A program made the position numbers and the translations under genes. This document shows, one piece after another, positions 4,015-64,000 of a DNA stretch of 64,000 nucleotides. The DNA is taken from sequence record MK524176.1; one strand, given 5' to 3'. How positions within the stretch are numbered: position 1 is the stretch's first letter; each line of letters starts with the position of its first letter. Source of the DNA: Escherichia phage PHB11. The notes under the pieces are model-generated. The model was not told the origin of the DNA, searched no databases, and saw only the letters and a program-made list of their open reading frames with translations.

Positions 4015-4255
4015 ACATGGGTAACACTCTACAGACACCACTAACTGATGCTGCTGTAGAGGCAACCTATGAAGAAGCAGACGAGATGAAATTTGTGCTT
4101 GCTATTTATGGTATGGAAGGGTGTAAAGAAACACTTGACCAACTCTTTGCTATGACATTCTCTGATTTATTATCATTGAGACAATTTCTTGAAATTCAGA
4201 GGTCGTATAAAGAGGAAATTGCTTACAACGAACTTAGAAGAGCAGGAAAAATGTA

Positions 4256-4256
<1 letters not shown>
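3616..4256 (+). CDS. Predicted G-T-like chaperone fusion made by -1 frameshifting at 3972-3978
   Basis: ORF 4017..4256 is in the -1 frame relative to 3616..4014 and that frame has no stop between the slip site and 4256. Confidence 0.45.
3972..3978 (+). other. Candidate -1 programmed ribosomal frameshift site (slippery heptamer T_TTT_TTC)
   Basis: In-frame X_XXY_YYZ heptamer; the -1 frame is open from 3978 through ORF 4017..4256. Confidence 0.5.
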
Positions 4257-9619
<5,363 letters not shown>

Positions 9620-13430: not shown

Positions 13431-13459
13431 TTTACAGGGGCTTTGTAGCCCCTTTTAAG
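13431..13459 (+). terminator. Hairpin with T-run between the two fibre genes
   Basis: CTTTACA-GGGGCTTTGTAGCCCC-TTTTAAG; same TTTACA + GGGGCTT...AAGCCCC unit as the early-region cassettes. Confidence 0.4.
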
Positions 13460-26940: not shown

Positions 26941-27107
26941 TTGCGAAGTGGGTTTTTACTTAAAAGGTTACTTAACAGTTTAACTATACAGATACTTTAA
27001 AACTCTTAAAAGATTATTTAATAGCTTTTAAAAAGCTTTAAAGTATAACGTATAGAATACGTTAAGATAAAAGATTAAAACTTAATAGTTACTTAAAAGA
27101 GGCTTAC

Positions 27108-56854: not shown

Positions 56855-56945
56855 AAAAGTACTTTACAGGGGGCTTAAAAGCTGATATCTTAAGCCCCAG
56901 ATAAAGAGCTTTACTAAACTAACCCTTAAACTAGGAGATTCAAAA
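56855..56945 (+). promoter_or_regulatory. Early cassette, class A
   Basis: AAGTACTTTACA, hairpin GGGGCTTAA-N11-TTAAGCCCC (TTTACA-17-TATCTT overlaps it), AGATAAAGAGCTTTAC, TIR ...CTAGGAGATTCAAAAATG. Confidence 0.45.
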
Positions 56946-57705: not shown

Positions 57706-57795
57706 TAGAGTACTTTACAGGGGGCTTAAAAGCTGATATCTTAAGCCCCAGATAAAGAGCTTTACCACTCAATCCTTAAACTAGGAGATTCAAAA
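57706..57795 (+). promoter_or_regulatory. Early cassette, class A
   Basis: GAGTACTTTACA, GGGGCTTAA...TTAAGCCCC hairpin, conserved TIR. Confidence 0.45.
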
Positions 57796-62187: not shown

Positions 62188-62278
62188 TTGCAATCAGATA
62201 TCAAAGCAAGTAAATTACTAATCAACGGGAGGGATGACCTCCCCACTAAGTAAAGTCCTTAAACTAGGAGATTCTAAA
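62188..62278 (+). promoter_or_regulatory. Early cassette, class B
   Basis: TTGCAA, 17 bp spacer, TAAATT, ATCAACGGGAGGGATGACCTCCCC hairpin, TIR ...CTAGGAGATTCTAAAATG. Confidence 0.45.
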
Positions 62279-62809
62279 ATGAACAAGTTCAAAGCTATCA
62301 ATTACATTCGTTCAAATAGTGTTATGTCAAAACCTGTTAAAGACACTTACGAATTCCGTTGCAATGGTGTACACTTCGCAACCATCACCAAATCAGAAAA
62401 CGGGGCTTATTACGTCCATCGCCGTAATGTTGCAACTGTTGTAGTCTCTCATTTTATGCAAGCTATCGCGGAATTATTACCGTTATTCTTAGAGATTTAT
62501 CTAGATGATTGTAAAAACGTTCACAATCACGTTAAAAACCTTTTAAATGGTTATAAAATGGCTTATGAACGTTCTATCAAGTCCTTGAACAAGTTCTATA
62601 AAGCCCCTGTAAATACCGTTTCAATGGCCTACGGTATAGGTGGCTGGACTGTTAACCTTTCTCTAGTGGAAGAAATCGAACTTTATGATTTACGTCCTAG
62701 CGGTTACTCTAAGACACTGGGAGAAGGTTTAACGTTCAATATCAAGAACTTAGAAAAAACTTTAAAAGATATTGAAAAAGATATTGACGAGACAATCAAA
62801 AATCTGTAA
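62279..62809 (+). CDS. Small early-region protein, unknown
   Basis: Start set at MNKFKAI (62279); the track start 62234 reads through the TIR. Confidence 0.45.
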   Translation: MNKFKAINYIRSNSVMSKPVKDTYEFRCNGVHFATITKSENGAYYVHRRNVATVVVSHFMQAIAELLPLFLEIYLDDCKNVHNHVKNLLNGYKMAYERSIKSLNKFYKAPVNTVSMAYGIGGWTVNLSLVEEIELYDLRPSGYSKTLGEGLTFNIKNLEKTLKDIEKDIDETIKNL

Positions 62810-62878
62810 ATTGTCAATCAACGGGGAGGGGATGACCTTCCCCACTAAGTAAAGCCCTTAAACTAGGAGATTCAAAAA
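62784..62878 (+). promoter_or_regulatory. Early cassette, class B; promoter embedded in the 3' end of the upstream gene
   Basis: TTGACG, 17 bp spacer, TAAATT (overlapping stop codon), ATCAACGGGGAGGGGATGACCTTCCCC hairpin, conserved TIR. Confidence 0.45.
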
Positions 62879-63127
62879 ATGGCAACTATCCGCGCAACTG
62901 TTAACGAATTTGGCTTCTACTCTCTGGATGTTAAATTTGACCTTGTAGGCACTAACAACGCCTTTGAAATGGTGAAAGGCCTTATCAGTCAGATAATCAA
63001 AGATTATAATCCTTCGGATGAGTTCTGGGAAGAAACAAAACAGGAAGTTTTTACGCATGGTCACACTTATTACTATTGGGGAGAAAAAATCGTCTCCTTG
63101 TACTACGATAAACAAGGTTGCAACTAA
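62879..63127 (+). CDS. Small early-region protein, unknown
   Basis: 82 aa ORF preceded by a class B cassette. Confidence 0.45.
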   Translation: MATIRATVNEFGFYSLDVKFDLVGTNNAFEMVKGLISQIIKDYNPSDEFWEETKQEVFTHGHTYYYWGEKIVSLYYDKQGCN

Positions 63128-63165
63128 TCAACGCAACGGGGCTAAATAGCCCCAGATACCTGAAC

Positions 63166-63191
63166 AGCCCCTATTTAAAGGGGCTTTTTTA
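63166..63191 (+). terminator. Intrinsic terminator closing the early array
   Basis: AGCCCCT-ATTTA-AAGGGGCT hairpin followed by TTTTTT. Confidence 0.6.
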
Positions 63192-63529
63192 CGTCTAGCG
63201 AATCCTTATACAATCCCTTTCCACCTCCTTTCTAGAATCTTATCAGACCTTAAAAAGCAATAACTCTATAGCTTACTCTATAGCCCCTTATCAAATCAAC
63301 TTAAATATAAGCCCATAACCCGAAAGGGAAGGGCAACCATTAATTGGTATTGTTACCAATCCCTAAAACGCTCTATAAAGCTCTATAACAGCCTTATCAA
63401 TCTAACTTAAGGGATTGCATTACCTCACCCTTAAAAGCCCTTTATAGAGCTTCCCAGAGCCTTAAAAGAATCTTATAAGGGTGTGAGCTTTATCATCTCG
63501 TTAGCTATCTTGTGAATAACTAAAAAGGG

Positions 63530-63994
63530 CTTGTTAGTGTCTTAAAAGTATGTTATAGGGGCTTAAAAGTTACTTTGAAGTAGCTTAAAAGTTACTTTGA
63601 AGTAGCTTAAAAGTTACGTAAATGCTAGCCCCCTTAACATTTTCTTAACAATTTCTTAACAAACCCTACATAGTTATGCTTTTAAGGCACTTGTTAGCAA
63701 CTTGTTAGCCCCTTGTTAAATCTCTGTTAATACCTCGTAAAAGCCTTGTAAGAGCCTTTGGCATAGCCTTTAAAGCCCCTGTAAAGCCCTATAAAGAGCT
63801 TTCTATATAGTTGGGGTGTAATTACTAGAAAGAGACTAAAAAGAGCTTATAAGGAGCTATAAAGGGCTTTTAAGAGGGCTATTTAAAAGGTCACTAAGAG
63901 GGAAAGGGAACGATAAGAAAAGAGATAGTGACCATGTTAACAGCTTGTTAAAAAGATTAAACACTTGTTAGGAACTTGTTAATTATCTTAACAA
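63530..63994. repeat. Cluster of CTTGTTA(R) motifs in both orientations in non-coding DNA
   Basis: CTTGTTAG/CTTGTTAA at 63530, 63690, 63701, 63712, 63944, 63964, 63975; inverted CTTAACAA at 63644, 63655, 63987. Confidence 0.6.
63561..63617. repeat. Tandem direct repeat, 22 bp unit, about 2.6 copies
   Basis: GCTTAAAAGTTACTTTGAAGTA at 63561 and 63583, partial copy at 63605. Confidence 0.7.
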
Positions 63995-64000
63995 AATAAC

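Follow-up and report, generated by a model that had tools for sequence, protein, structure and literature searches.

The window analysed here, a stretch of 64,000 nucleotides of Escherichia phage PHB11 (MK524176.1), is Felixounavirus DNA, and its last part, positions 63128-64000, is in our judgement likely to be the right-hand terminal region of the genome, serving as a concatemer junction and pac-like packaging region of the short direct terminal repeat (DTR) type known from T7. Homology with relatives whose termini are mapped shows that the right end of the genome lies here, as does the left boundary of a short, exact DTR. By this alignment, the region divides into unique right-arm non-coding DNA (63128-63627) and the first 373 bp of a DTR of ~580-615 bp (63628-64000). 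The original prediction, made from the letters of the window, had named a packaging site or terminal-repeat boundary among several candidate functions for this repeat-dense region, and that option is now supported by a left boundary at 63627|63628, inside the stretch, placed by homology to six relatives. Short DTRs of ~600 bp are already known for Felix O1-like phages, and the PHB11 stretch adds another case; the result thus overturns nothing and is the kind of element expected in a short-DTR phage. Felix O1-like phages are widely used for the typing, detection and biocontrol of Salmonella and E. coli, yet the formation of their genome ends is unstudied.

Boundaries and conservation of the terminal repeat

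The left boundary was placed using Ro111lw, D4, H12, ZX4221, HP1 and UAB_Phi87, all of which have mapped or annotated termini. The records of ZX4221, D4, H12 and Ro111lw begin at the base equivalent to window position 63628, and the exact repeats found at both ends of two of these records (591 bp in ZX4221, 581 bp in D4) align by their first base with the same position. In HP1, a Citrobacter phage of the genus Mooglevirus, the annotated repeat_region has the same limits as the other mapped DTRs. The ends of D4, H12 and I14.1 were set with PhageTerm (PMC11737134), which also gave a DTR of 613 bp for Ro111lw (PMC6454146); Bal31 digestion and run-off sequencing gave 608 bp for UAB_Phi87 (PMC4837284), and short terminal repeats had been inferred for Felix O1 (PMC3185647). 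The word that spans the left boundary, …GTTACGTAAATGCTA|GCCCCCTTAACA, has an exact match at 63613-63639 of the window. Its counterpart on the right, …GTTAAGGGCTACC|AAGCAGATATACA, is present in all eight aligned Felix O1-like relatives as well as in ZX4221, D4, H12 and Ro111lw, and both words are kept across Felixounavirus, Suspvirus and Mooglevirus. In Ro111lw the two boundary words enclose 613 bp, exactly the published DTR length.

By homology, the DTR of PHB11 is predicted to run ~190-250 bp past the end of the window, where the right boundary word would fall. DTR length ranges from 559 to 623 bp in Felix O1-like relatives (439-623 bp with the predicted DTR of Erwinia phage Pistou, described below) and both boundaries are fixed; the ends are therefore set by sequence and not by measured distance. 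Read on opposite strands, the two boundaries share the context 5'-TGCTW|G(N2-4)CCCTTAACA, of which the left copy lies at 63623-63639 and the right copy beyond the window. No second copy of the stretch, as expected from the other genome end, occurs within the 64-kb window, and terminal duplication in PHB11 is therefore drawn from homology.

Matches to 63128-64000 were found in 255 phage records, 220 of which cover at least 80% of it, nearly all from Felixounavirus or sister genera, a distribution at odds with the assembly artefact that the original prediction had allowed for. In relatives the stretch forms the first part of a gene-free gap of ~1.65 kb, which contains the DTR. A block of rightward genes ends at one side of this gap and a block of leftward genes at the other, so that transcription converges on it, and terminators stand on both sides. 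This gap was present, without a conserved gene, in all eight Felix O1-like relatives examined in detail, and its annotation is inconsistent between laboratories, with no gene called consistently. The window thus resembles established Felix O1-like DTRs in its sequence (87-97% identity in the DTR part), its left boundary word, its word arrays and its position between convergent blocks. Across the eight relatives the DTR part is conserved as highly as, or more highly than, the neighbouring genes. In Mooglevirus, DTR DNA is 76-78% identical, in contrast to only 49-55% for the first left-arm protein, and the DTR DNA of Suspvirus relatives is likewise 76-78% identical. For annotation, these results fix the physical right end of the PHB11 genome, with the DTR starting at window position 63628, and explain the large gene-free gap of its relatives, most of whose eight records have arbitrary start points and no annotated repeat. 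The features of the region are listed in Table 1.

Table 1. Features of the terminal region of the PHB11 window, in order of position
Feature	Position	Strand	Remarks
Hairpin GGGGCT…AGCCCC	63138-63153	+	Ends rightmost operon; kept in 8 relatives
Intrinsic terminator	Stem 63166-63185, T-run to 63191	+	Ends rightmost operon; kept in 8 relatives
Highly conserved non-coding core	63250-63540		Aligned across three genera
Direct repeat ACTCTATAGC, two copies	63263-63284		In core
22-nt palindromic cassette AATTGGTATTGTTACCAATCCC	63341-63362		7-bp arms; TTGTTA overlaps centre (63350-63355); presence/absence polymorphism
GCTCTATAAA, two copies	63370-63388		In core; inverted partner at 63440-63449
21-bp near-palindrome CCTTAAAAGAATCTTATAAGG	63460-63480		Invariant in 9/9 phages of 3 genera
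ATGTTATAGGGGC	63550-63562	+	Inverted partner of first 13 nt of DTR; conserved in 7/9 phages
11/22-bp tandem array (GCTTAAAAGTT/ACTTTGAAGTA)n ending ACGTAAATGCTA	63561-63627	+	Runs exactly to predicted cut
Predicted left DTR boundary, putative cleavage or nick site	63627/63628		…GTTACGTAAATGCTA|GCCCCCTTAACATTTTC…; boundary word identical in window
First 373 bp of DTR (by homology)	63628-64000		76-97% identical to DTRs of 8 relatives in three genera
Three inverted copies CTTAACA (TGTTAAG on -)	63633-63662	-	11-bp spacing; left edge of DTR; in all relatives, 5 copies in Si3
Four direct TGTTA(A/G) sites: CTTGTTAG, CTTGTTAG, CTTGTTAA, CTGTTAA	63689-63731	+	11-bp spacing
Central DTR with CTDDWAAG-type words	63733-63900		CGTAAAAG, CTTGTAAG, CTTTAAAG, CTGTAAAG, CTATAAAG, CTTATAAG, CTTTTAAG; no TGTTAR
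Longest open reading frame, 35 aa	63857-63964	-	Not a gene: stops or frameshifts in 6/8 relatives
Second TGTTA(A/G) cluster	63935-63994		ATGTTAAC, CTTGTTAA, CTTGTTAG, CTTGTTAA and inverted CTTAACAA; array goes on beyond window in relatives

Phased TGTTAR sites and the right-arm core

One short word dominates the DTR. TGTTA(A/G), or TGTTAR, occurs at 14 sites in 63128-64000, four inverted copies (CTTAACA) included, with a single site in 63128-63627 and 13 in the 373 bp of 63628-64000, against a window mean of 0.8 for that length; at most four sites fall in any other 373 bp of the 64 kb. At least 10 copies of CTTGTTA(R) in both orientations had been reported in the original prediction, a statement that holds for the core TGTTA(A/G) but not for exact CTTGTTA, which has seven copies in 63530-63981 (~0.12 expected from the rest of the window), all on the + strand. 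Each DTR carries 20-24 TGTTAR sites in Felix O1-like relatives and 16 in Pistou. Most sites are in the + orientation; the left edge of the DTR has three to five in the opposite one, and the unique DNA of the right arm holds none or one.

The positions of the TGTTAR sites are conserved in all eight relatives and the 4-5-nt spacers between them vary, a combination expected of protein-binding sites. Neighbouring sites are 11 bp apart in 89 of 181 cases, with nearly all of the rest at 9-10, 20, 22, 31 or 44 bp. The best-fitting period is 10.4 bp (R = 0.77-0.82 in the three phages tested, reached by 0-1 of 500 random placements), and copy number shifts by whole 11-bp units, as in the five CTTAACATTTT units of Si3 and the one CTTGTTAGCNN unit missing from HMD-P10.

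On the other side of the boundary, the core of the right arm contains a second invariant element, AATAACTCTATAGC, in addition to the 21-bp near-palindrome, and is interrupted by presence/absence insertions of small palindromic cassettes. Several repeats of the right arm were already in the original prediction and stand as described: the palindrome ATTGGTATTGTTACCAAT at 63343-63360, the inverted pair CTCTATAAAG/CTTTATAGAG, with CTCTATAAAG at 63371, and the 22-bp tandem repeat at 63561-63617, which has 2.6 copies at 100% identity and forms part of an 11-bp array. The length of this array varies in 11-bp steps among relatives, which puts the cut 57 + 11n bp from TATGTTAT in eight of the nine phages with that word. 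In DNA folds (z ~-2.7), ATGTTATAGGGGC and the start of the DTR, GCCCCCTTAACAT (63628-63640), pair as single strands and enclose the tandem array. The same word recurs as ATGTTAAGGGC, 4 nt before the right DTR boundary of relatives. The internal TGTTAR lattice, the boundary words and the right-arm core are undescribed in the studies of these phages consulted here (PMC3185647, PMC4837284, PMC6454146, PMC11737134).

At its right-arm site the cassette AATTGGTATTGTTACCAATCCC is present in the window and in HMD-P10, occurs as a variant in SUSP2 and is absent from six other relatives; ZX4221 has one copy in the right-unique part, and UAB_Phi87, SUSP2 and Ro111lw carry an exact copy inside the DTR. 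Copies lie at 2121-2138 in L007, 2162-2179 in L013 and 363-380 in L021, and several other relatives lack the cassette at both sites. Its behaviour is that of a small mobile or duplicated element restricted to this part of the genome. A second family of palindromic inserts (GATTCGATAGAATCTATC-like, 26-60 nt), absent from the window, is scattered through the right-arm non-coding DNA of relatives, in the terminator loop of L012 and L013, near the equivalent of window position ~63530 in L001 and L007, and near ~63232 in L012 and L014.

The same layout is found in a distant relative, Erwinia phage Pistou (Kolesnikvirus), although it was absent from the matches of the BLAST searches made here. Its gap was located by gene order, as tracing via the flanking protein failed, that protein not being conserved in Erwinia phages. 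Between convergent gene blocks lies a gap of 1.4 kb with 17 copies of TGTTAA (0.64 expected), a recognisable left boundary (…GGTTA|GCCACTTTTACATTTCGTTAACAA) and an exactly conserved outer right boundary word, AAGCAGATATACA, the rest of the right boundary word not being kept; the predicted DTR is 439 bp. The right arm carries 9-12 copies of a different 11-bp-spaced word, CTTCTAAR, where Felix O1-like phages have CTTAAAAG. As judged from these alignments, the subfamily as a whole keeps the two-array design, the TGTTAAG word and the cut-site context, but not the length of the DTR. Strict inverted symmetry of the cut sites was rejected as a subfamily-wide rule, as it holds in three genera and only weakly in Pistou.

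A probable packaging role and the alternatives to it

Replication in T7-type phages gives concatemers with one copy of the DTR per junction. In the replicating concatemers of PHB11, two genome copies would meet at such a junction, with the stretch as its left half. A packaging enzyme (terminase) or a partner nickase would recognise the sequence-defined sites at the two DTR boundaries, 5'-TGCTW|G(N2-4)CCCTTAACA on opposite strands, and introduce staggered nicks there, one in the + strand at 63627|63628 and one in the - strand at the right boundary. Strand-displacement synthesis from the two 3' ends would then copy the DTR on both sides, giving a full repeat at both ends of each packaged genome. 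With its sites on one face of the helix (~10.4 bp), the TGTTAR lattice most probably recruits a phage DNA-binding protein, bound cooperatively, to mark the junction and organise the cuts; the small terminase subunit would be the prime candidate. The asymmetric right-arm core and its CTTAAAAG-type array are probably the pac part that gives packaging its direction.

The closest mechanistic parallel is T7, whose DTR is 160 bp long (bases 1-160) and, at the T7/T3 concatemer junction, is flanked by heptamer arrays (SRL/SRR) and a pac region. In the T7 sequence we found at least 12 C[CA]TAAAG words, spaced at 13 bp, immediately after the DTR. Both systems have a short, exact, non-permuted DTR (here by homology) with arrays of short words alongside; the arrays are A-rich in each case (C[CA]TAAAG in T7, CTTAAAAG/CTWTAAAG words beside the repeat here), an inverted repeat or hairpin adjoins a boundary in both, and both presumably have to duplicate the repeat during maturation. 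In contrast, the two share no sequence homology, and the repeat here is ~4x longer and is itself packed with TGTTAR, a second word at a phase of ~10.4 bp. A cloned T7 junction and an origin on a plasmid suffice for packaging (Chung & Hinkle 1990, as cited in PMC13236587), and RNA polymerase pauses at the T7 concatemer junction (PMC3276506). Unlike in T7, no phage RNA polymerase promoters flank the repeat here (a single-subunit RNA polymerase gene was not searched for), and ACTCTATAG words resemble the T7 promoter core only superficially.

A second comparison is offered by phages in which repeated words are bound by the small terminase or pacase: the TGATCA/G hexamers on both sides of the cut in P1 pac, pacL/pacR of SPP1 and the R sites of lambda cosB. 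These systems likewise have several copies of a 6-7-bp word, in both orientations, around a defined cut, and the helical phasing seen here suggests, by analogy, cooperative binding or DNA wrapping. They differ in using headful or cos packaging with few sites (3-7), in contrast to ~20 putative sites over the whole DTR and two sequence-defined cuts ~600 bp apart in the phages studied here.

Several points weigh against a packaging function, or against parts of the mechanism proposed for it. For PHB11 itself, termini and terminal duplication are predicted from homology, and the window holds only the first 373 bp of the repeat. In UAB_Phi87 the boundary words enclose 614 bp, 6 bp off the experimental length of 608 bp. 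As inverted copies the two cut sites match imperfectly, being offset by 2 nt, and in Pistou their symmetry is weak. Replication slippage can also give phased arrays of 11-bp units without selection on phase. The TGTTAR-binding protein is hypothetical, with the small terminase subunit as a candidate. Felix O1-like phages are not known to encode an RNA polymerase of the T7 type; should they lack one, they could not use the part of the T7 mechanism that is coupled to transcription.

The arrays could instead serve replication, with the TGTTAR and CTTAAAAG words as the iterons that a phage initiator would bind and their terminal position a secondary matter, a reading we consider unlikely, although an origin could coexist with packaging, and origins and packaging signals lie close together in some phages. 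The many phased, positionally conserved short repeats are of the iteron type, with direct-repeat arrays present, and a word resembling a DnaA box, TTATTCACA, lies at 63511-63519 on the - strand inside a conserved block, ATCTTGTGAAT. However, this DnaA box is the only one, is weak (relaxed) and is conserved in some relatives but not all; an AT-rich unwinding element is absent (maximum AT over 40 bp of 0.775, below the 99th percentile of 0.78 for the window), as is a site for integration host factor (IHF), and the neighbouring genes hold no recognisable initiator, helicase-loader or DNA-binding domain in PHROGs or Pfam. For the origin proposed among the functions in the original prediction, iteron-like arrays are present, but an unwinding element is absent and no initiator gene is recognisable nearby. 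The array also fills exactly the terminal repeat and stops at its boundaries, a better fit to a function at the genome ends.

Such a function might be protection of the ends or DNA entry, with a phage or host protein bound to the arrays against RecBCD or controlling ejection and circularisation. Arrays that fill the DTR sit at both ends of the virion DNA, the left edge is the one place where copies are inverted, which gives the arrays an orientation bias, and similar TGTTAAG arrays occur in the non-coding DNA of unrelated viral contigs (L099, L090). Against this, the region showed neither a Chi-like sequence nor any other established signal for end protection, a binding protein would be hypothetical, and the conserved, sequence-defined boundaries suggest cutting instead; we regard a primary role in protection or entry as improbable.

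A role of the region in regulating early or late expression, whether as a group of promoters or operators or as a gene for a non-coding RNA, is very improbable, despite the operator-like, invariant near-palindrome CCTTAAAAGAATCTTATAAGG, the recurrence of CTTAAAAG and ATAAAGAGCTT in other intergenic regions of the window and a folding energy of 63252-63672 lower than that of shuffles: with convergent gene blocks and terminators on both sides, no gene could be driven from it, sigma-70-like matches are at the chance level (3 found, 2.6 expected, with one weak match in the region counted as no more than chance would give; in the nataliec gap, 11 against 6.4 ± 2.3 expected, all weak at 9/12), Rfam gives no match at E up to 1, and RNAalifold finds a covariation term of +1.33 with one compensatory pair in 48. 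The low folding energies arise because words are present in inverted copies. We therefore rejected a sigma-70 promoter cluster, with its matches at chance and its flanking genes convergent, and, lacking covariation, a novel structured RNA in the core at 63250-63540. The promoter or operator cluster of the original prediction, which would lie downstream of a terminator, finds no support. We found no transcription start-site data for the genus in the literature, and the passages searched in the PhageMaP/Bas63 preprint contain nothing on the region.

The region is also without a protein-coding gene. As the original prediction had stated, no open reading frame of 60 aa or more overlaps 63128-64000, and the sole candidate, the 35-aa frame of Table 1, was excluded by its disruption in relatives. 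Neither a conserved gene nor a structured RNA, either of which the original prediction had named as grounds for abandoning its reading, was found among relatives, in Rfam or by covariation. The last gene of the window, 62879-63127, is followed by two hairpins, the second of which is the terminator originally placed at 63166-63191 and borne out by its stem and T-run; 63125-63200 folds at -28.4 kcal/mol (z = -4.8). The only matches of the flanking genes are to PHROGs of unknown function, with none in Pfam, and so no candidate for a binding protein comes from them.

Returning to packaging at a short-DTR junction, a broader and more tentative proposal can be made: that an Ounavirinae-wide phased lattice of ~20 TGTTAA/G sites, and a lineage-specific right-arm array (CTTAAAAG-type, or CTTCTAAR in Erwinia phages), may form an undescribed packaging or end-organising nucleoprotein complex, with cut sites that are inverted copies of 5'-TGCTW|G…CCCTTAACA and a word that recurs in unrelated viral contigs. 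We put this forward as a possibility and would not expect it to hold in full. Were it true, TGTTAAG arrays near terminase or sigma-factor-like genes in unrelated contigs would represent a widespread, unrecognised DNA-binding module. The boundary words, the TGTTAR lattice and the right-arm core are, in any case, testable cis-elements that could guide the design of packageable vectors or engineered phages.

Related words elsewhere in the window and in other viruses

Dense arrays of TGTTAA(G)/TTAACA were seen in the non-coding DNA of unrelated IMG/VR contigs, with 10-13 sites per 600 bp in blocks of both orientations (L099, ~7180-7640; L022, ~6070-6500; L090, ~596-1000; L118, ~4180-4600). The array of L099, which stands just upstream of the first gene, immediately precedes a promoter-like site and a sigma-factor-like gene (phrog_5767); L022 has a gene of the phrog_5767 family near its TGTTAAG array, and in L090 the array lies ~4 kb upstream of terminase and portal genes. 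Most matches in a scan of viral contigs for TGTTAAG(N4)TGTTAAG were single chance ones, with few real arrays, making the scan unusable as a census of the family. In the public records, Felix O1-like sequence that includes the stretch and its flanking gene occurs at 137082-137627 and elsewhere in GenBank GU169904.1, a 147-kb record labelled Staphylococcus phage SA1, which may be mixed or mislabelled.

The word CTTAAAAG has eight copies in 63128-64000, six of them on the + strand (0.17 expected), and 31 across the window (5.4 expected). It is over-represented in the rest of the window and is therefore not specific to the terminal region, whereas TGTTAR is. Copies are found, for example, at 13452(-), 20214, 21607, 26959-27099, 52008 and 61375(-), many of them intergenic and beside hairpins or ribosome-binding sites, and the excess may be compositional or mark a word with a regulatory role in these phages.

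Two further kinds of intergenic repeat were noted in the window. A module of ~70-110 nt, composed of a hairpin and …TAAACTAGGAGATTCAAAAAATG, is present at 62200-62283 and 62771-62890; it precedes several of the small rightmost genes, has more copies upstream in relatives and, in nataliec, immediately precedes most of the final eight or so genes. The other, …TACTTTACAGGGGGCTTAAAAGCTGATATCTTAAGCCCCAGATAAAGAGCTT…, occurs twice, at 56860-56925 and 57711-57776, has both CTTAAAAG and ATAAAGAGCTT in common with the terminal region, and corresponds to the 57-bp direct repeats reported for Felix O1 (PMC3185647).

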